In this document: in pieces, positions 8,256-22,748 of the stretch
Position numbering within the stretch: the first letter of the stretch is position 1
Layout: the number at the start of each line of letters is the position of its first letter
From: a virus
Lineage: Duplodnaviria; Heunggongvirae; Uroviricota; Caudoviricetes
Virus record (IMG/VR): IMGVR_UViG_2534682096_000014
Reading direction: 5' to 3' (one strand)
DNA: 22,748 bases
The notes under the pieces: generated by a model
Told to the model about the DNA's origin: nothing
What the model saw: the letters and a program-made list of their open reading frames with translations, nothing else
Database searches by the model: none
Translations under genes and position numbers: made by a program

Positions 8256-10481
8256 ATGAGTACCACAACACGAAAATTTAAAACCGTTATCACCGATACG
8301 GGTGCAAAAAAATTAGCTCAGGCAGCCGCGCCAGATGGTAAGCCTGTCCGCCTGACTCATATGGCCGTGGGCGACGGTGGCGGCACGTTGCCCACACCAG
8401 ACAGTAAGCAGACCCGTCTGGTGCATGAGGTGTGGCGACATACTGTTAATCGCGTCATCCTGGACGCAACACATCAGAACCGCATTATTGCGGAGCTAGT
8501 TATTCCTCCTGAAACGGGCGGATTCTGGATCCGGGAAATTGGTGTATTTGATGAGCACGGCGATTTAATCGCGGTGGGAAATACTGCCGAAAGTTACAAG
8601 CCAGCCGTTGCCGAAGGGTCCGGTCGTGCACAAACATTTCGCACCATTCTGACCGTATCCAGCACTGCCACCGTGGCGCTTACCGTGGATAACACCATGG
8701 TGATGGCCACAGTGGATTACGTGGATGACAAACTGAAAGAGCATGAACAGTCACGACGTCACCCGGACGCCTCGCTGACCGCAAAAGGCTTTGTTCAACT
8801 CAGTAGCGCCACTAACAGCGTGTCTGAAACGCAGGCTGCAACGCCGAAAGCAGTAAAGGCCGCGTATGATCTTGCTAACGGTAAATATACTGCGCAGGAT
8901 GCCAGCACGACGCGAAAAGGCCTTGTCCAGCTCAGTAGCGCCACCAACAGCACGTCTGAAACGCAGGCTGCAACGCCGAAAGCAGTAAAGGCCGCGTATG
9001 ACCTTGCTAACGCAAAATATACCGCTCAGGACGCTACGACGGCACAAAAAGGGATAGTCCAGCTCAGTAGTGCCACCAACAGCACGTCTGAAACACTGGC
9101 CGCGACATCGAAAGCGGTTAAGGCGGTAATGGATGAAACGAACAAGAAAGCGCCCTTAAACAGTCCTGCGTTGACCGGAACGCCAACAACGCCAACTGCG
9201 CGACAGGGAACGAATAATACCCAAATCGCAAGCACGGCTTTCGTTATGGCTGCGATTGCCGCCCTTGTAGATTCGTCACCTGACGCACTGAATACGCTGA
9301 ACGAGTTAGCGGCGGCGCTGGGAAACGACCCGAATTTTGCGACCACCATGACTAACGCGCTTGCGGGTAAGCAACCGAAAGATGCCACCCTGACGGCGCT
9401 GGCCGGGCTTGCTACTGCGGCAGACAAGTTTCCGTATTTTACGGGGAATGATGTCGCCAGCCTGGCAACCCTGACAAAAGTCGGGCGGGATATTCTTGCG
9501 AAATCGACCGTTGCTGCCGTTATCGAATACCTCGGTTTACAAGAAACGGTAAATCAGGCTTCTGGCGCATTACAGAAAAACCAGAACGGCGCAGATATTC
9601 CAGGAAAAGATACCTTCACAAAAAATATTGGTGCATGTCGCGCTTTTCACAGTGCTATTAGTACAGGGGCAGGGAACTGGACAACGGCACAATTGATTGA
9701 ATGGCTGGATTCTCAAGGGGCATTCAATCACCCATACTGGATGTGCAAATGTTCATGGTCATACGGCAATAATAAAATTATTACCGATACTGGCTGTGGA
9801 ACTATTCATCTTGCAGGTTGCGTTATTGAGGTTATGGGTAATAAAGGTGCCATGACCATCCGTGTAACCACCCCGAGCACTTCCAGCGGTGGCGGAACTA
9901 CTAATGCACAATTTACTTATATAAACCACGGTGGAGATTATGCGCCAGGCTGGCGGCGTGACTACAGTACCAAAAATCAGCAGCCTGCATTTGCTTTAGG
10001 GCAGACAGGAAGCACTGTTGGAAATGACAAAGCTGTTGGATGGAACTCAAATAGCGGCGTTTATAATGCGACTATTAGTGGAGCGTCAACATTGATTCTT
10101 CACTTTAATATGAATGCGGGGAGTTGCCCGGCGGTTCAGTTCCGTGTGAATTATAAGAACGGCGGTATTTATTATCGTTCAGCGCGAGATGGTTATGGAT
10201 TTGAGGCTGACTGGTCAGAGTTTTATACCACAACACGCAAGCCATCAGCAGGAGATGTTGGTGCATATACCAAAGCCGAATCAGATTCTCGCTATGTACG
10301 AGATATTCGCCTGGGCACACGTGTTGTTCAGACTATGCAAAAAGGCGTGATGTATGAGAAATCAGGTCATGCAATTACGGGGCTTGGCATTGTCGGTGAA
10401 GTTGATGGCGATGATCCGGCAGTATTCAGACCAATACAAAAGTTAATTAACGGAACATGGTATAACGTATCGCAGGTATAA
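8256..10481 (+). CDS. H: tail fiber protein H (expressed variant in the current orientation)
   Basis: 741 aa; conserved P2 H-type N-terminus, three tandem 44-aa shaft repeats, variable distal part, conserved extreme C-terminus; the 3' portion lies inside the invertible segment. Confidence 0.85.
8787..9182 (+). repeat. tandem coding repeat, 3 x 132 bp (44-aa tail-fiber repeat, third copy diverged)
   Basis: [44 protein letters not shown] repeated with period 132 bp (copies begin at 8787, 8919, 9051). Confidence 0.8.
9520..9601. repeat. left inverted repeat of the invertible segment, including a gix/hix-like crossover site (ttatcgaatacctcggtttacaagaa, 9520..9545)
   Basis: About 71 bp (9531..9601) matches the reverse complement of 12502..12572 at 69/71 positions; the outer 26 bp resembles the recombination sites of Gin/Hin/Cin/Pin systems. 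Confidence 0.7.
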
Positions 10482-10483
10482 TC

Positions 10484-11017
10484 ATGCAGCATTTAAAAAA
10501 CATTGTCGCAGGTAATCCAAAAACCGTTGAACAATATCAGCTAACAAAGAATTTTAATGTTATCTGGTTATGGTCCGAAGACGGAAAAAACTGGTATGAG
10601 GAAGTGAAAAACTTTCAGGAAGATACAATAAAACTGGCTTACACTGTAGAGGGAATAATTGTTGCTATGGATAAAGATGTATCGGCAATTAATCCAGAAG
10701 GTTTAAGTGTCGTTGAGTTGCCTGATATTACAGCAAATCGCCGGGCTGATATTTCGGGGAAATGGATGTTCAAAGATGGCGTAGTGATAAAGCGAACTTA
10801 TACCGAGGAAGAGCAGAGGCAACAAGCGGAAAATGAAAAGCAAAGCCTGCTACAGCTCGTCAGGGATAAAACACAGCTATGGGACTCACAGCTACGGCTG
10901 GGTATCATTTCCAACGAGAATAAACAAAAATTAACCGAGTGGATGCTCTATGCGCAGAAGGTCGAATCCACAGACACCTCCAGCCTGCCAGTAACGTTTC
11001 CAGAACAACCAGAATGA
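10484..11017 (+). CDS. G: tail fiber assembly chaperone (gpG / Tfa), expressed copy
   Basis: 177 aa immediately after H; N-terminus [20 protein letters not shown]; paralog of the - strand ORF at 11046..11573. Confidence 0.8.
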
Positions 11018-11020
11018 AAC

Positions 11021-11040
11021 AAGGCCCGCTATCGGGCCTT
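11021..11040. terminator. hairpin between the convergent Tfa genes (aaggcccg ctat cgggcctt, then T-rich on the + strand)
   Basis: 8-bp GC-rich stem followed by aatttttatt; sits at the centre of the invertible segment. Confidence 0.4.
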
Positions 11041-11045
11041 AATTT

Positions 11046-11573
11046 TTATTCAGGCTTTTGTGGCCATTCAGGATTTGCCGTATCCACACGGCTGACCAGA
11101 ACACTATAGCGTTCCCATGACTCCAGTCGTGCGCGTTCCTCATCCGTCGCCATATTCAGCCTGACAGCGCGTTCCAGTGGCTGAATAACGTTTTCTGCTT
11201 CGGAAAGTAACGCGGCCTTTTGTGATTCGGCCTGTTGTTGTTGCTCGTCTGCCGTATAAATCCGTTTAACCACAGCTCCGTCCTTAAACATCCACTTACC
11301 GGAATCATCAGCACGACGATTAGCTGTAATATCAGGAACCTCAACGACGCTATAACCTTCAGGGTTAAGCGTGGAGGCATCTTTGGTGATGGCGACAATA
11401 ATATTATTTGCATCGTAAACAATCTTTATTGTGTCTGGCTGAAAGTTTTTCACTTCCTCATACCAGTTTTTTCCGTCTTCGGACCATAACCAGATAACAT
11501 CAAAATTCTTTGTTAGCTGATATTGTTCAACGGTTTTTGGATTACCTGACTTAATGTTTTTTAAATGCTGCAT
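11046..11573 (-). CDS. alternative tail fiber assembly chaperone (Tfa'), silent cassette partner
   Basis: 175 aa; first ~45 residues nearly identical to G, C-terminal third diverged; convergent with G. Confidence 0.8.
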
Positions 11574-11576
11574 AAT

Positions 11577-12566
11577 TTACACCTGCGCAACGTTATACCA
11601 TGTGCCATTGATGTATTTTTGTATTGGTCTGAATACTGCTGGGTCATCACCATCAACTTCACCGACAATACCAAGCCCCGTGATTACATGGCCTGATTTT
11701 TCATACATCACGCCTTTTTGCATGGTCTGAACAACACGTGTGCCAAGTCTGACATCTCTCACATAGCGGGAATCAAAGTTACCGTAATCCGAGGGGTTAA
11801 CACGCCCTGTAATATTTATGGTTTTATTACTTTGAATGCTGCCGGAGACAAAGCGCATAACATGGACGTTATTAGCATAAACATCCAGATACCCGTCGCC
11901 ATTTTGTTTAAATCCCGTGTCATTATCACCCAAAACAATCGAGTTACCGCCAAGAGCACTGGATGTTCCGATACCCAATGCACCATTCAATTGACCGCCA
12001 GATAATGACAACGCCCCAACCTCAGCAGCAGTCGGTTTAATGTGCGAACTGTAAATTACATATACAGTTCCATCTGTCAGGCCTGTTGGTTTATTCGCTG
12101 TATAAGTTGGTGATGTATGAATTTGTACAGTTGCATCCTTTGTATAATCCCACTGGATATTAACACCTGTGGCGTAATTACCTATTTCTACATAAATGTC
12201 ATAGGTATCACCGGATGTATTCACCCATGCAAAATTAGTAAATCCAACCGAGGTCCGTCGCCATAATGCACCAGTAAGACCTTTTGGATTTCCATTTCCC
12301 GCACGAAGAACAAGTTCAGATATACCAGCCTGCATAGGGGAGTTAACATTATATCCAGCACCACCAATCAGACTTATGTAAACCACGGAACTGGCTTGTG
12401 GCATTGTTACAGTTGCCAGTTTGAACCATCCAGCACCACCACTAAAAGACATGGTTGTTGAATTTGTTGTGCCGATATTACGCAGGAATAGTTTTTTATC
12501 GGGAATATCTGCGCCGTTCTGGTTTTTCTGTAATGCGCCAGAAGCCTGATTTACCGTTTCCTGCAA
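11577..12566 (-). CDS. alternative tail fiber C-terminal cassette (H'), promoterless in this orientation
   Basis: Begins inside the right inverted repeat with the same [21 protein letters not shown] junction as H residues ~428-448 (the apparent start is a TTG continuing an upstream reading frame); conserved C-terminal ~60 aa, different middle region. Confidence 0.75.
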   Translation of the reverse strand: MQETVNQASGALQKNQNGADIPDKKLFLRNIGTTNSTTMSFSGGAGWFKLATVTMPQASSVVYISLIGGAGYNVNSPMQAGISELVLRAGNGNPKGLTGALWRRTSVGFTNFAWVNTSGDTYDIYVEIGNYATGVNIQWDYTKDATVQIHTSPTYTANKPTGLTDGTVYVIYSSHIKPTAAEVGALSLSGGQLNGALGIGTSSALGGNSIVLGDNDTGFKQNGDGYLDVYANNVHVMRFVSGSIQSNKTINITGRVNPSDYGNFDSRYVRDVRLGTRVVQTMQKGVMYEKSGHVITGLGIVGEVDGDDPAVFRPIQKYINGTWYNVAQV

Positions 12567-12583
12567 ACCGAGGTTTTAGATAA
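12502..12583. repeat. right inverted repeat of the invertible segment, including a gix/hix-like crossover site (ttcctgcaaaccgaggttttagataa, 12558..12583)
   Basis: Reverse complement matches 9531..9601; the outer site is a near-palindromic 26-mer. Confidence 0.7.
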
Positions 12584-12637
12584 TGGCTGTTTCTGACCTG
12601 CATGGCATGATTTACGCTTTTGGACGGGAGATTCAGC

Positions 12638-13225
12638 GTGCTGATTGGCTATGTAAGGGTATCAACAAATGACCAGAATACAGACCTGCAACGAAACGCT
12701 CTTGTTTGTGCAGGATGTGAACAAATATTTGAAGATAAATTAAGCGGGACAAAGACAGACCGACCGGGATTAAAACGCGCTTTAAAGCGTCTTCAAAAAG
12801 GTGACACGCTGGTTGTCTGGAAACTGGATCGCCTCGGGCGAAGCATGAAACATCTGATTTCTCTCGTCGGGGAACTACGGGAGCGAGGGATTAATTTTCG
12901 CAGTCTGACCGACAGCATAGATACATCTTCTCCAATGGGGCGTTTTTTCTTCCACGTGATGGGTGCCCTGGCTGAAATGGAACGTGAATTAATTGTTGAA
13001 CGTACACTGGCCGGACTGGCGGCAGCGCGCGCACGGGGGCGCACAGGCGGACGTCGACCGAAGCTGACAAAAGAACAGCATGAGCAAATAGCAAGGCTGA
13101 TTAAAAACGGTCACGACAGAAAACAACTGGCAATAATTTACGGCATTGGTACATCGACGATTTATCGTTACCACCCCGCAGGAGAATCAAGCGGAACAAT
13201 AGAGAAGAGTCAGAAAACAAAATAA
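12638..13225 (+). CDS. DNA invertase, serine recombinase of the Pin/Gin/Hin/Cin family
   Basis: VLIGYVRVSTNDQNTDLQRNAL... with the catalytic-Ser motif and a C-terminal HTH; GTG 12638 preceded by GGAG; the ORF track starts at TTG 12620. Immediately adjacent to the invertible segment. Confidence 0.85.
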   Translation: MLIGYVRVSTNDQNTDLQRNALVCAGCEQIFEDKLSGTKTDRPGLKRALKRLQKGDTLVVWKLDRLGRSMKHLISLVGELRERGINFRSLTDSIDTSSPMGRFFFHVMGALAEMERELIVERTLAGLAAARARGRTGGRRPKLTKEQHEQIARLIKNGHDRKQLAIIYGIGTSTIYRYHPAGESSGTIEKSQKTK

Positions 13226-17139: not shown

Positions 17140-17652
17140 TCAGCCAAGCCCGAGCGCGGAACGGATGCGATCGGGCACAATGTCCTTGCCGTCCTTCCGG
17201 TAAATGAAGTTCAGCAGGTCAATCTCCCACAACGGGCGATCGTTAACACTCAGCTTGTAGTAGGTGTTTTTAATGGCGTAAGTGTGTGATGTGGCTTCGC
17301 CCTGTTTGGCTTCCCCCATATCAATTTCCGTCACACGTCCGCGCATTTCGACTTCATACAGGTCGCTTTCTGCATCGGTGTAGTATTCACCCGCAAAACG
17401 CAGCAGCGTGCCGTCAATCGTGCCGCCATACTTAAGGAACAGCTCACGAACTGCGCCCCCCATGACAAAGCTCGCATCAAGCGCGGAGTCGTCCAGACCG
17501 AGATCAATACTTACCGCACCCATCATGCCACCACCCCGGTAGCTGTCGGTTTTGCGCGTCAGCTTAGGCAGAGTGACGGACGTCACCTTACCCACTTCGT
17601 TTTCACCATCCACAAACAGCGTAAAAAAGCGAAGATGTTTTGGTACAGCCAT
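17140..17652 (-). CDS. FII: tail tube protein (gpFII-like)
   Basis: 170 aa, position and size as P2 FII; follows FI. Confidence 0.85.
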   Translation of the reverse strand: MAVPKHLRFFTLFVDGENEVGKVTSVTLPKLTRKTDSYRGGGMMGAVSIDLGLDDSALDASFVMGGAVRELFLKYGGTIDGTLLRFAGEYYTDAESDLYEVEMRGRVTEIDMGEAKQGEATSHTYAIKNTYYKLSVNDRPLWEIDLLNFIYRKDGKDIVPDRIRSALGLG

Positions 17653-18836
17653 CAGGCACCTCCCAGCACCGCAAATGCGGGACCAAAGAATTCATCAGTA
17701 AACGACTGGTAAAGCTCCATGTCTTCCAGCGGGGGAACAGGCGTATATTTGTAGCGAATACGCACGCGCCCCTGACGTAAATTCGTGGTGCCGTTATCCA
17801 CCACGTCATACCAGCACGACGCCCCAATCAGTTTCCCGGCAGTAACCAGTGAATCCAGTTTTGCCCTGATGGCACTGATAACATCTTTCACGTTCGCAGG
17901 CGTCAGTGGACTGTCGATGGTTTCAAACTGCGCTTCCGCAATTGAATCAGCCAGCACCTGTGCGGTTCGGGTATACACCTCAAAGATGTAGGCGTTCGTT
18001 TCCGGTGTGCGGTTGCCCCAGAAGCGGAACCCATTGCGACGAATAATGGTCGTGATTTCTTTGTTGTTGAGGCTGTTGGCATCACTGTCTTCGGCCTGCA
18101 ACGACCAGAACACATGCCTGGACATCCCCAGCACATTTTTAACCGGAACGTTGGACAGCGATTTGTGCCAGCCCTGCTCATGGTCAATGTACGCACGAAG
18201 GCCGCACGCATAGGCAGGCGCGGGGAACGTTTCGTTTTTGCCACTTTTCGGGTTGTAGGCGATGAAGTCCGGCCATAAGAGCATCACCTCACGTTCGTTG
18301 AATTTCTGGCGGTAGGTAATCGCCTCAGCCATCGTGTTACAGCCGTGACATGAGGCATACACAAACGCGCGCAGTTTACCCGCAATCACGCACAGGGATT
18401 TTGTTACCGCCTCCGTGTCCAGCTCCGGCGCGGCCAGAATACGCGGACGGTATCCGATGCTTTCATCCTGCTCTGCAACAAGCAGCGCATACATCCCCGT
18501 ATAGCTGCCGTCATCCTCAGAACCACCGATAACCAGTTGATCCTGCGTCTTTCCGTCTTCTTCTTTGTGTTCAGCCACGCGAACGACGATCACCTTTGTG
18601 CTCACCTGGTCTGCGATGGCCTTAAGCGCACGATAAAGCGTCCCCGTTGTCCCGCATTTTCCCAGCACGTCATTGACGCGGGTCAGCAGTGTGGGCTTGT
18701 TCAGCGGGAACAGCTTCGCATCCGCATCATCCGCCGTTGCCACGATACCGATAACACTGGAATCAACATCATTAATCGCTGTTACCAGGTCGGTACTTTC
18801 CGTAACACGGGCACCATGAAAACGAGTTTCACTCAT
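17652..18836 (-). CDS. FI: contractile tail sheath protein (gpFI-like)
   Basis: 394 aa, size as P2 FI; its stop overlaps the FII start. Confidence 0.85.
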   Translation of the reverse strand: MSETRFHGARVTESTDLVTAINDVDSSVIGIVATADDADAKLFPLNKPTLLTRVNDVLGKCGTTGTLYRALKAIADQVSTKVIVVRVAEHKEEDGKTQDQLVIGGSEDDGSYTGMYALLVAEQDESIGYRPRILAAPELDTEAVTKSLCVIAGKLRAFVYASCHGCNTMAEAITYRQKFNEREVMLLWPDFIAYNPKSGKNETFPAPAYACGLRAYIDHEQGWHKSLSNVPVKNVLGMSRHVFWSLQAEDSDANSLNNKEITTIIRRNGFRFWGNRTPETNAYIFEVYTRTAQVLADSIAEAQFETIDSPLTPANVKDVISAIRAKLDSLVTAGKLIGASCWYDVVDNGTTNLRQGRVRIRYKYTPVPPLEDMELYQSFTDEFFGPAFAVLGGA

Positions 18837-20093: not shown

Positions 20094-20287
20094 ACAACTT
20101 AGATGCATTAGCCCTGACATTTGTTAACGCGCCTACAGCAAGAATCATAACCAATCTGACAGCCTACCAAGTGTCAAAATCAGAAGTACCTTACATTAGA
20201 ATATGTTAATTTGTAGCAAACAAATTTACACACAAATGATTACTGCTGAAATAGCGCCCATAAATGCCATGTCAGAGGATCCATGTT

Positions 20288-20941
20288 ATGAATATGCAAC
20301 CAGCAGCCACAGTTGCTGCAGTCTGCCTTGCTGCATATTTTGCTTTACGAAATGAACGTAAAAAGAAAGCACTTGAGATTAGAACAACTCAACTAGATCG
20401 AATATCTGAGCTAGTAAACCGAGCATCTACCAATTTGATGCAATATACAGGTAGCCTTGCCTCTATACTGGAAGCGCGCGCCAAAGAAGATTATCGACCG
20501 AACAAAAAATTTGACATTAATGTAATTAGCAAATGGAAAGATTGCCTCGATGAGAGTGAGGTCTGGGCGATTGATATACAGCAACTCAGAGCATGTCAGC
20601 ACAGCCTGGAGTTTCATCGTGAAAAAGAATGGGCTGAATGGAAACAAATAATTCCACCATTACTTGATAAAATTGATCAATTCTTTCTCATATCTAAGCC
20701 AGGGCAACCTGTTACGTTTATAAATAGCCAAAACAAAACAGCTGATGAACTACTTGATTTCTCAAGATATTTGAGAGCTCAAACAGCAGAAATTGAATCA
20801 GTACGTCGGCAGTTACTTTCCCAAATGAGAAAAGAATTCAGCGAGTTGACTAGCTTTAGACCTATCACAATATTTAGCCTATTTAAATCAATAAAGAAAA
20901 ATGTCATGCAATTTTTCTGTATCGGCGCTCTTAAAAATTGA
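20288..20941 (+). CDS. hypothetical membrane-anchored protein, AT-rich cargo (moron) gene, function unknown
   Basis: ORF 20264..20941; ATG 20288 lies 8 nt after AGAGGA; N-terminal hydrophobic segment AATVAAVCLAAYFAL; clearly AT-richer than flanking phage genes; AT-rich upstream intergenic region and downstream hairpin. Confidence 0.5.
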   Translation: MNMQPAATVAAVCLAAYFALRNERKKKALEIRTTQLDRISELVNRASTNLMQYTGSLASILEARAKEDYRPNKKFDINVISKWKDCLDESEVWAIDIQQLRACQHSLEFHREKEWAEWKQIIPPLLDKIDQFFLISKPGQPVTFINSQNKTADELLDFSRYLRAQTAEIESVRRQLLSQMRKEFSELTSFRPITIFSLFKSIKKNVMQFFCIGALKN

Positions 20942-21090: not shown

Positions 21091-21351
21091 ATGTTTCGTT
21101 GTCCGCTTTGTGGCGCATCTGCCCGTATCCGCACCAGTCGTTCGGAAAATGATTCAGATACCGTGCGGAAAAAATATTACCAGTGTAACAACCTGGAATG
21201 CGGCGTATGCTTCTCAACACTGGAGGCTTTCCATAAATTCACATCGAAACACGCCCCAGGCGTTCACTCTTCAGAGGGCATCCCGTGGAATGAGCTGCCA
21301 GCTTCGCACAGGGGAAACAACCAAATGAGTTTGCCCTTACCTCAGAATTAA
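21091..21351 (+). CDS. ogr: Ogr/Delta-family zinc-finger late transcription activator
   Basis: MFRCPLCG...YYQCNNLEC has the CxxC-N22-CxxxxC arrangement of P2 Ogr; GGGAGG RBS; 86 aa. Confidence 0.8.
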   Translation: MFRCPLCGASARIRTSRSENDSDTVRKKYYQCNNLECGVCFSTLEAFHKFTSKHAPGVHSSEGIPWNELPASHRGNNQMSLPLPQN

Positions 21352-21411
21352 CAGGCTGAATTGCCGGAGTAACAAAAAAGCGATAGATTACGCGCGGGTG
21401 CCTTTCGGCTG

Positions 21412-21624
21412 ATGGCTGGAGGGAATACCCGAAGGCCAGATGTGGAAAGGCCCCGGAAAACATTTCTGTTTAACCGAGGCCCTGACCATCTAACCTTAGC
21501 AAGTGATAGGTTAGCGCCTCCCCAAAAAAGGAGCAAGCGCTATGTCGCAAAAATCGCTTATGGCCATCACGTTCTGCGTGACGGTAATCCTCATCATCTG
21601 GATGCTGCACGGTTCGCTGTGTGA
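21412..21624 (+). CDS. mok-like overlapping reading frame of the hok-family locus
   Basis: 70-aa ORF overlapping the 5' two-thirds of the hok-like ORF in another frame, as in hok/mok/sok loci. Confidence 0.35.
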   Translation: MAGGNTRRPDVERPRKTFLFNRGPDHLTLASDRLAPPQKRSKRYVAKIAYGHHVLRDGNPHHLDAARFAV

Positions 21625-21682
21625 AATACGGATGAGCTTCTGGGGAGCGGAGTTTGCGGCGTTCTTACAGTGTAAGCAGTAA
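21542..21682 (+). CDS. Hok/Gef-family small membrane toxin (type I toxin-antitoxin)
   Basis: 46 aa MSQKSLMAITFCVTVILIIWMLHGSLCEIR...; single TM helix followed by the SLCEIR motif shared by Hok/Gef/RelF; AGGAG RBS 8 nt upstream; below the 60-aa cutoff of the ORF track. Confidence 0.6.
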   Translation: MSQKSLMAITFCVTVILIIWMLHGSLCEIRMSFWGAEFAAFLQCKQ

Positions 21683-21771
21683 GGAAACCGCGACGGGGGA
21701 GCAATCCCCCGTCAATCGGTTGCTAAGGCTGGCCGAAGTGGCACCCTATCCCATGGACACAAACAAGAAAA

Positions 21772-21802
21772 CCCGCAGCGTAAAAACTGCGGGTTTTCTT
21801 TT
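21772..21802. terminator. rho-independent terminator (cccgcag cgtaaaaa ctgcggg ttttctttt), probably bidirectional
   Basis: 7-bp GC stem followed by a T-run on the + strand; A-run on the other side. Confidence 0.5.
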
Positions 21803-21873
21803 GGAGCTCTCACTTAGCTAGGGTACCGTTAACAACACACATAATGCTCGCAAAACAAACCAGTTAAAAGTGA

Positions 21874-22155
21874 TTACTCAGCATTCTCCTGCTTCCATTG
21901 CCGGATCATTTCATCCGTAACATCACTCTCATAACATACCACGTCATACCCTCCAGTACGGCTATATGCACTGCGTCTACCACATCTACTACCATTCCTT
22001 GCATGATTATAAGGACACGCACAATTGCCTGGATACGATTCAATGGATTCTTTAATTATTTCTTTCTTGATCTGAGCATCAGACTTTCCTGTTGCTGCAT
22101 ACCCACTAAAAGATACCAAACAAAAACAGATTGCCATTAATAAACCACATCGCAT
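21874..22155 (-). CDS. hypothetical small secreted cysteine-containing protein
   Basis: ORF 21874..22269; likely start at the internal Met giving signal-peptide-like MRCGLLMAICFCLVSFSGYAA; CACPYNHARNGSRCG motif; AT-rich. Confidence 0.4.
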   Translation of the reverse strand: MRCGLLMAICFCLVSFSGYAATGKSDAQIKKEIIKESIESYPGNCACPYNHARNGSRCGRRSAYSRTGGYDVVCYESDVTDEMIRQWKQENAE

Positions 22156-22439
22156 ACCGATACACTCTATTACTAACCAATCATAACCCACATCATAAAA
22201 TCGAGATGTGGAGTACAACACCTTTAACAAGAAGGTGTCATAACGATAATATGCCGTGCAATTCATCAAAAAAAAGATCTATATCAAAGAGATAGAGCTC
22301 TTATCAGTGCTGCAGACATCGGCATTCGAGGCAGCAGAAAAACAGTAAATCTGACGATTTTGCCTTTTCTCAGGATGTTGTCAGATTAAAAAAGACAGAT
22401 TAGCGCAGGTACCTTTTGGTGGATGGCAGGAGGAAAAAT

Positions 22440-22545
22440 GAAGTCGAGTGGAAAAATCCCAGAAAAATTTTTGTTTAACCGAGGTCCTAGTTCACTATGC
22501 GAAATACGGAGGAGCTGCAGGAGAATTCGGCTTCATCCTTAGAGT
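22440..22545 (+). pseudogene. decayed second hok-family locus (leader region plus a C-terminal CEIR.. remnant, internal deletion)
   Basis: 22408..22495 is about 75% similar to the hok leader at 21408..21500 (shared gtttaaccgagg(c/t)cct); gaaatacgga matches the hok CEIR-coding region but the N-terminal half is missing. Confidence 0.35.
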
Positions 22546-22623
22546 TTAAACAGCACGTGCACTACTATTGTTTCTGCATATCGCCACACCATCGCCACTC
22601 CACCGCCATTGCACAAAATACAA

Positions 22624-22651
22624 ATACAAAAAAACCACCCGAAGGTGGTTT
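22624..22651 (-). terminator. rho-independent terminator downstream of the tRNA-Leu gene
   Basis: Minus strand reads aaaccacc ttcg ggtggttt followed by tttttgtatttg. Confidence 0.5.
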
Positions 22652-22695
22652 CACGACACTGCTTATTGCTTTGATTTTATTCTTATCTTTCCCAT

Positions 22696-22748
22696 GGTAC
22701 CCGGAGCGGGACTTGAACCCGCACAGCGCGAACGCCGAGGGATTTTAA
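22696..22748 (-). tRNA. leuZ: tRNA-Leu(UAA), 3' portion only (gene continues beyond the window end)
   Basis: Minus strand reads ...TTAAAATCCCTCGGCGTTCGCGCTGTGCGGGTTCAAGTCCCGCTCCGGGTACCA: anticodon loop with UAA, long variable arm, T-arm and ACCA end; matches my recollection of E. coli leuZ. Confidence 0.8.

Follow-up and report, generated by a model that had tools for sequence, protein, structure and literature searches.

In the window (the whole 22,748-nt stretch of DNA analysed here), the gene for the P2 late-gene activator Ogr occupies positions 21091..21351 of the plus strand (Pfam Ogr_Delta, 53.4 bits against a cut-off of 26.3), and the region immediately downstream of it carries a hok-type type I toxin locus. 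An earlier note on this DNA had placed such a locus just past ogr, and that placement is supported by the protein family, the RNA family, the predicted folds, their covariation and the comparison with related loci. The toxin gene hok (MSQKSLMAITFCVTVILIIWMLHGSLCEIRMSFWGAEFAAFLQCKQ) lies on the plus strand at 21542..21682 and encodes a 46-aa membrane toxin of the Hok/Gef type; its Shine-Dalgarno sequence, AAGGAG, is found at 21528..21533 of the same strand, 8 nt 5' of the ATG. A hok promoter is predicted from sequence reading at 21361..21389 (plus strand), where TTGCCG (21361-21366), which begins ten bases 3' of ogr, is separated by a 17-nt spacer from TAGATT (21384-21389). This -10 hexamer aligns with TATGAT of R1-type loci and appears as TAGATT, TAGAAT, TACATT or TAAATT across 18 homologues. 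The predicted full-length hok mRNA (21396..21803, plus strand) would be about 408 nt long. Its 5' end, 7 nt past the -10 hexamer, was set by a match to the Rfam family RF01794 that begins at model position 1, and its 3' end was set by the terminator; the leader, from 21396 to the 46-aa ORF, measures 146 nt. The terminator that had been noticed 3' of hok is confirmed at 21765..21800 as an intrinsic terminator working in both directions (both strands), which closes the hok mRNA and faces a convergent 131-aa ORF; its region also gives Rfam Thr_leader terminator-type matches on both strands. A sigma-70 scan of the locus found no promoter. The predicted hok and sok promoters are both weak matches to the consensus, and both were placed via alignment to R1-type loci and by their conservation.

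The 46-aa peptide passes the gathering score of the Pfam family HOK_GEF (PF01848; 30.3 bits against 22, residues 7-44) and matches PHROG 251 ('MokW-like host killing') with an E-value of 3e-23. The hydrophobic helix and the SLCEIR motif previously read from the ORF at 21542-21682 are both confirmed: a hydrophobic stretch spans residues 7-22, one cysteine (C27) lies inside SLCEIR and a second (C44) is C-terminal. The peptide is RefSeq WP_000078911.1, 'Hok/Gef family protein', and an identical sequence was found on 997 contigs or more, in some sources under the name 'protein HokA'. The best NCBIfam match is HokA (NF007290) at 35.1 bits, far under the equivalog cut-off of 89 for that model, and assignment as the HokA equivalog was rejected on this ground. 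Identity with HokW, suggested by the PHROG name and by an 83% DNA match to Stx2a phages, was rejected because HokW has 51 aa. Compared with the Hok of R1, the peptide shows 39% identity over 31 residues; the R1-type locus used for alignment encodes a Hok identical to that of R1.

In the census of Hok proteins by Escalera-Maurer et al. (bioRxiv 10.1101/2025.08.07.668861), this subfamily corresponds to identity cluster 72, tagged in the table as 'HAC', which we read as high-abundance cluster. The census authors overexpressed 45 Hok homologues and found only three to be non-toxic. Two members of the cluster were in the tested set and fall outside those three, namely 72_1621, which is 2 of 46 residues off the Hok described here, and 72_1589, the Stx2a-phage form. 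The former is the exact peptide encoded beside ogr in several of the loci that we compared (L002, L005, L020, L022 and L023), and its testing amounts in effect to the toxicity check by overexpression that the earlier note had proposed. That census covered coding sequences only, leaving aside the mRNA elements, Sok, mok and the position adjacent to ogr. In our set of complete viral-contig copies (72 complete IMG/VR copies with 60 distinct sequences), an intact Hok of 44-48 aa is encoded by all 72.

A search with Rfam at gathering thresholds gave no match in the window. In E-value mode, RF01794 matches 21396-21530 end to end (E 1.8e-8), with a score of 45 bits that stays below the gathering score of 59. 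This family is named 'sok', but its consensus spans the hok mRNA from the 5' end to the AUG, so that the plus-strand match represents the hok leader. The plus-strand elements known from hok mRNAs can be placed along the transcript in order. The leader starts with tac at 21396..21409 (GGGUGCCUUUCGGC), which is invariant in 18 homologues, and continues with the upstream complementary box ucb at 21442..21454 (GUGGAAAGGCCCC) and with the antisense-target hairpin at 21476..21520, in which, in the 3'-shortened fold, GAGG (21476-79) pairs with CCUC of dcb (21517-20). Past the stop codon lies a GC-rich hairpin, which folds as 21692..21713 (given earlier as 21693-21712, a placement that holds to within a nucleotide at either end) and is predicted to protect the 3' end of the processed mRNA. 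It is followed by a 3'-UTR segment at 21715..21728, which in the full-length fold pairs with the Sok-target loop at 21494-21507, and by the fold-back inhibition element fbi at 21732..21746 (GCCGAAGUGGCACCC), the partner of tac.

Folding of the full-length RNA (21396-21803) gives -186 to -187 kcal/mol, with z = -8.0 against shuffled sequences. In this fold, tac (21396-21409) is paired with fbi (21732-21746), GAGG and its surroundings (21475-21483) with the ucb region (21447-21455), and the 3'-UTR segment 21715-21728 with the loop region 21494-21507; GGAG of the hok Shine-Dalgarno sequence pairs with CUCC at 21518-21521. When the RNA is cut past the GC hairpin (21396-21716), tac re-pairs with ucb (21442-21454), the GAGG/dcb pairing is formed and the loop 21491-21504 is left open. 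The same switch from a full-length to a truncated conformation has been described for R1 (PMC9841398). From the two folds, the segment 21715-21728 would appear to hide the Sok target until 3' processing.

Both conformations were evaluated on an alignment of 18 homologues that are 74-100% identical. Pairing across the 18 homologues amounts to 92.0% for the full-length structure, in which 29 pairs have changed on both sides, and to 94.7% for the shortened one, in which 19 have. None of 500 shuffles reaches the values of either structure, and partners slid out of register give only 38-44% pairing, a comparison that favours the two structures somewhat because both were derived from the window sequence. 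Among individual elements, the GC hairpin is 100% paired in the 18 sequences, with compensatory changes in 4 of its 9 pairs, and in the helix between 21494-21507 and 21715-21728 both bases have changed in 6 of the 13 pairs. The target hairpin is 91.3% paired. The tac/ucb helix, at 99.1% paired, shows no covariation because it is almost invariant, and in the tac/fbi helix, which is 92% paired, variation is seen on one side only. The tac/fbi duplex has a predicted energy of -25.7 to -31.3 kcal/mol in all 12 homologues for which it was calculated, as compared with -17 +/- 2.6 kcal/mol for shuffles; in the same 12 of 12, the duplex partner of the first 18 nt sits 45-51 nt past the stop codon, and the fbi sequences differ. 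The covariance and fold comparison of the leader that the earlier note had proposed as a check finds both conformations kept across the 18 homologues. We consider the identity of the locus and the existence of the RNA switch to be well supported.

The antisense RNA Sok is predicted to run along the minus strand from about 21500 to about 21437 (21437..21500, approximately 57-64 nt) and would consist of a 5' single-stranded tail and a stem-loop. Its predicted promoter occupies 21508..21536 of the minus strand, with TTGCTC at 21536-21531 and TAACCT at 21513-21508 separated by a 17-nt spacer. In the leader alignment, the -10 hexamer of the R1-type sok promoter, which we take to be TTGCGC-17-TATCCT, falls opposite TAACCT and its -35 hexamer opposite TTGCTC, with an equal 17-nt spacer. 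At this predicted promoter, AGGTTAGCGCCTC shows no change in any of the 18 sequences, and AGGTTA is kept in each of the 72 viral-contig copies. Only 6 of the 12 positions of the sok hexamers agree with the consensus, which explains why the promoter scan missed them. The predicted sok promoter overlaps dcb, as it does in R1, where a sok promoter mutation falls in dcb (PMC9841398). The putative Sok folds at -28.3 kcal/mol (z = -4.0), and its 5' tail is complementary to the open loop at 21491-21500. A minus-strand, Sok-like RNA had been expected here at 21400-21480; the promoter hexamers at the R1-homologous place are in line with the expectation itself, but the predicted position of the RNA (approximately 21437-21500) is some 20-40 nt to the right of that range. 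A decayed second hok copy is present 600 bp away from the locus. Its use as a sponge for Sok was considered and rejected, as its deletion starts exactly at the would-be Sok-recognition loop.

Several features are common to this locus and hok/sok (parB) of R1. Both encode a small membrane peptide of the Hok/Gef type that contains LCEIR, both have a leader of some 147 nt, and both show the tac/fbi clamp, the alternative tac/ucb stem and the GAGG/dcb target hairpin; at corresponding positions of the opposite strand, the sok promoter (predicted here) overlaps dcb, and a protective hairpin past the stop codon is followed by a terminator. The locus differs from R1 in that its Hok has 46 aa rather than 52, in lacking both an ATG at the mok position and a conserved mok frame, and in that a strong AAGGAG Shine-Dalgarno sequence of hok overlaps the -35 hexamer of sok. 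It also resides on a prophage and not on a plasmid, and its RF01794 score is under the gathering score. Another prophage-borne type I module with an antisense RNA directed against the 5' UTR is hokW/sokW of the Stx2 prophage Sp5 in E. coli O157 Sakai, whose measured role is in phage release; HokW, however, is a 51-aa protein, 44% identical to R1 Hok, that belongs to another subfamily and to a lambdoid phage. Like HokA of E. coli K-12, for which this is reported, the present Hok has both its cysteines directly encoded; hokA, however, is a chromosomal locus and is not phage-borne.

On the strength of R1 homology, folding and covariation, the following sequence of events can be proposed. A stable mRNA of about 408 nt would start at 21396 with tac clamped to fbi and with the 3'-UTR segment covering the Sok-target loop; on account of the clamp and the covered loop, the full-length RNA would be neither translated nor bound by Sok. 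Slow 3' trimming to the GC hairpin would remove fbi, upon which tac would re-pair with ucb and the GAGG/dcb hairpin would form with an open loop. The short, unstable Sok would bind this loop, and the duplex would be destroyed (by RNase III in R1). Should sok transcription stop, through prophage loss, transcription shut-off or phage development, the processed hok mRNA would be translated, and Hok would enter the inner membrane, with the cell being killed or lysed.

With respect to mok, the earlier note calls for a correction. The 70-aa overlapping mok-like frame of the earlier note is present and open in this copy (21412..21624, plus strand), but its function is doubtful: the frame is not conserved and it lacks a start at the R1 mok position. 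Its ATG lies 17 nt from the mRNA 5' end and has no Shine-Dalgarno sequence, and an alternative GTG start is available at 21442. GAGG sits at the position of the R1 mok Shine-Dalgarno sequence, and the sequence at the position of the R1 mok ATG is CTAAC, which contains no start codon; a search for a near-cognate mok start 5-10 nt past GAGG found none in frame. In the copies from P88, Chuche, L002, IncI1 and Stx2a, the 70-aa frame is stopped before the hok ribosome-binding site. A leader ORF of any kind (ATG, GTG or TTG) that reaches the hok Shine-Dalgarno sequence occurs in 8 of 18 curated loci with an intact Hok and in 30 of the 72 viral-contig copies (24 of the 60 distinct sequences). In R1, translation of mok up to the hok Shine-Dalgarno sequence is mandatory (PMC9841398); the authors of the Hok census set mok aside as 'not trivial' (bioRxiv 10.1101/2025.08.07.668861). 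Judged by the R1 standard, the copy in the window looks intact, yet mok is not among the conserved features of the subfamily. Given that the leader ORF is not conserved and that R1 needs mok, either the subfamily is mok-free or many of its copies are translationally silent.

If the locus belonged to the silent copies, the peptide would be potentially toxic, but its mRNA would never be productively translated for want of a functional mok, and the whole module would be a neutral passenger. Besides the missing start codon at the R1 mok position, the minority of copies with a leader ORF that reaches the hok Shine-Dalgarno sequence and the mok requirement of R1, this explanation can draw on the chromosomal hokA, hokB and hokC, which are reported to be inactive in post-segregational killing, and on the decayed copy 600 bp off, which indicates that such loci do rot here. 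However, all 72 copies encode an intact Hok despite nucleotide divergence of up to 25%, compensatory changes are seen in both alternative RNA folds, the sok promoter hexamers are invariant, and hok has a strong AAGGAG of its own at the ideal spacing of 8 nt. This pattern, in which toxin, switch and sok promoter are all conserved, indicates that purifying selection acts on the toxin, the switch and the antitoxin jointly, and it argues against a silent locus, which we regard as improbable.

The mok-free reading can be put forward tentatively, as a possibility. According to it, the 46-aa Hok of cluster 72 would belong to a naturally mok-independent variant of hok/sok, in which the toxin gene uses its own AAGGAG, competition between dcb (CCUCC) and GAGG controls that sequence, and the covarying segment 21715-21728 masks a hypervariable Sok-recognition loop until 3' processing. 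The scattered and variable leader ORFs, the 70-aa frame included, would on this view have arisen as a side effect of indels in the target loop. The predicted accessibility of the hok Shine-Dalgarno sequence is 0.34 in both folds, with no difference between them, so that thermodynamics alone cannot support the idea of direct control.

The earlier note had been unable to tell whether this locus is host DNA or cargo at the end of a prophage, and the boundary of the element settles the matter in favour of the latter. The prophage/host boundary attR (22626..22748) is a repeat of the 3' part of tRNA-Leu (leuZ) together with the sequence just downstream, and what all E. coli genomes (5425 matching) share of the window is only the part from 22626 onward. 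The 123-bp attR repeat recurs as attL beside the integrase gene, between yecA and int, in strain 510016 (L007, 9369-9491), and the hok locus is located 824 bp inside attR. The presence of attL and attR, together with host core sequence from 22626, assigns the hok locus to the prophage, an assignment also supported by its recurrence at several sites: the ogr-hok pair is found at five or more integration sites, including leuZ, ytfP/tamB, flk, ihfA/pheT and serS. The locus is therefore accessory cargo of a P2-like (P88/Xuanwuvirus-type, Peduoviridae) E. coli prophage, located between ogr and attR, and with high confidence we describe it as a hok/sok-type type I toxin-antitoxin module carried by this prophage.

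The same arrangement is widespread. The ogr-hok junction (21180-21480) occurs in 1186 of 5426 complete E. coli genomes, about a fifth, and the hok locus itself is matched in 1577 of the 5426. Among the compared loci, ogr is immediately 5' of hok in L001, L002, L004, L005, L008, L014 and L016, and the pair is also encoded by phages P88, Chuche, P884B11, 500465-2, 520873, PhiR44_2 and Shae_phiSM, the gene order in Chuche being ogr, hok, com/methylase, int. It is found in Salmonella as well. A degenerate tac pattern retrieved only 6 stretches from contigs representing one genome per species; four of the six contain the locus, one from Salmonella, one from E. albertii and two from probably contaminated assemblies. 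The cluster-72 subfamily of Hok is further present in lambdoid prophages (among tail genes), in Stx2a phages, on IncI1 plasmids and in a urease island. Enrichment of hok in prophages has already been reported, with 6290 homologues in IMG/VR.

As to the benefit for the prophage, post-segregational killing is the default role of hok/sok modules carried by mobile elements. Here it would stabilize lysogeny through the killing of cured cells, which is the likeliest pay-off, although this may be said with much less certainty than the identity of the locus. Side effects on the timing of lysis and on the exclusion of other phages are possible. Two reports count against stabilization: the chromosomal hokA, hokB and hokC loci are reported as unable to mediate post-segregational killing, and the effect measured for hokW/sokW was on phage release, not on stabilization.

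That measurement underlies a lytic role, in which Hok would be freed during prophage development and would act as an auxiliary membrane-damaging factor that speeds lysis and raises phage release. The hokW-sokW module of Sp5 aided lysis following induction, and phage release was approximately halved without it. There is no terminator between ogr and hok, so late read-through could shift the balance between hok and Sok, and the same Hok subfamily is encoded among the tail genes of lambdoid prophages. Several considerations nevertheless make this role rather unlikely here. HokW (51 aa, 44% identity with the Hok of R1) is not the same Hok, and the P2-like prophage has lysis genes of its own, a holin, a peptidase, an Rz1-like protein and one more being annotated in a related copy. 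The same module is also carried by IncI1 plasmids and the urease island, which have no lytic cycle. To our knowledge, P2-type phages are not SOS-inducible, which counts against such a role as well.

A function in abortive infection, in which a superinfecting phage would stop transcription, Sok would decay and Hok would kill the cell before progeny are formed, appears quite improbable. P2-like phages do carry hotspots of antiviral genes, and hok/sok of R1 on a high-copy plasmid is reported to have lowered T4 plating and plaque size. The reported effect was modest, however, and was obtained with the high-copy plasmid, and hok genes are reported not to be enriched near defence systems. PADLOC had no model match for Hok, nor for the orphan ORFs beside it, and the P2 hotspot adjoins cos rather than ogr (PMC9122126). 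A search for hok or ogr in two papers on P2 defence hotspots (PMC9122126 and PMC13586616) found no mention of either, and the lack of any reference to hok there likewise speaks against a defence function.

Taken as cargo of a P2-like prophage, the locus is real but ordinary: the ogr-hok arrangement is very common, has been annotated before and is dealt with in recent literature. The right arms of P88-type P2-like prophages routinely carry a complete hok/sok module, whose Sok RNA and mRNA elements lack annotation and escape Rfam at its gathering threshold. Apart from correct annotation, and from the assignment of the locus to the phage, the consequences are small, and the only loose end is the apparent dispensability of mok. 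Of wider interest is the contrast between a strictly conserved Hok and a leader ORF of the mok type that is not conserved; if the subfamily is truly mok-free, it would offer a simple natural test of which regulatory parts of R1 are essential.

Strain 510016 (locus L001, 648-2449) has a hok segment with 100% identity to window positions 21352-21802; for the adjoining end segment (21803-22748) the identity is 99.9%. In the prophage of strain 510016, IS100 interrupts the tail-sheath gene; the ORF that the window carries at this position (17652-18836; 394 aa) is intact. Since the best match of the whole window to any complete genome reaches only about 95-97%, the window is a mosaic relative.

Further upstream, the region 10284-13225 is probably an invertible tail-fibre segment, as indicated by its inverted repeats and an adjoining invertase gene. 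One set of repeats is 198 nt long with 87% complementarity, the other 361 nt with 80%. They enclose a pair of tail-fibre-assembly genes in opposite orientations, together with an alternative C-terminus for the fibre; the adjoining gene (12620-13225) encodes a serine invertase of the Gin/Cin type (Pfam Resolvase, 171 bits). The arrangement looks like a host-range switch in the style of P1 and Mu, here in a P2-like prophage.

Between gpD and ogr there is an insertion with a 225-aa ORF on the plus strand (20264-20941), whose predicted product has an N-terminal hydrophobic segment. This ORF matched no family in Pfam, PHROG, NCBIfam or PADLOC, and its exact sequence was not found in a collection of 15 billion proteins. 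We regard it from its position as extra cargo, because in phages P88 and Chuche and in one other compared locus (L008) D is followed by ogr with a gap of only about 43 nt.

Downstream of hok, a 131-aa ORF on the minus strand (21874-22269) is convergent to the toxin gene, with the same bidirectional terminator between the two. Its RefSeq annotation covers only the last 93 aa (21874-22155). From its sequence, the product seems to start with a hydrophobic leader and to end in a tail rich in Cys, and its sole family match is PHROG 27544 (function unknown; E 4e-58). The ORF lies within an 823-bp phage end segment, present in 587 genomes.

A second, decayed hok/sok copy is found on the plus strand at 22388-22556, between the intact module and attR, the boundary with host DNA at leuZ. 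What it retains, with 75% of positions identical to the intact copy, is the hok -10 element, both tac and ucb, and the region of the Sok stem. A deletion of about 130 nt has taken out the loop targeted by Sok and the sok promoter, as well as the SD of hok and its first ~26 codons. In O157:H7, leuZ is adjoined by about 910 nt of the prophage end segment, the decayed copy included; ogr-hok itself is missing from the P2-like remnant there, lost to IS30. E. coli-type ogr-hok or hok sequences (84-95% identity) also occur on a contig of Vagococcus sp. WN89Y and on an 857-bp contig of Xanthomonas pisi, which most likely represent contaminated or misassigned assemblies.

The leader of the intact hok mRNA matches RF01794 ('sok antitoxin') at 21396-21530 on the plus, that is the sense (hok), strand. 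The consensus of this family resembles the hok mRNA 5' end at its start and its last bases are AUG; the strand of a match to RF01794 should therefore not be taken as that of Sok. Within the leader, variability is greatest in the Sok-recognition loop region (21484-21507), where indels shift the reading frames. This region covaries with a 3'-UTR segment (21715-21728), two-sided changes being seen in 6 of the 13 pairs. The combination of a variable loop and a covarying 3'-UTR segment suggests that the specificity of the predicted Sok RNA diversifies and that the masking element may be matched to it.
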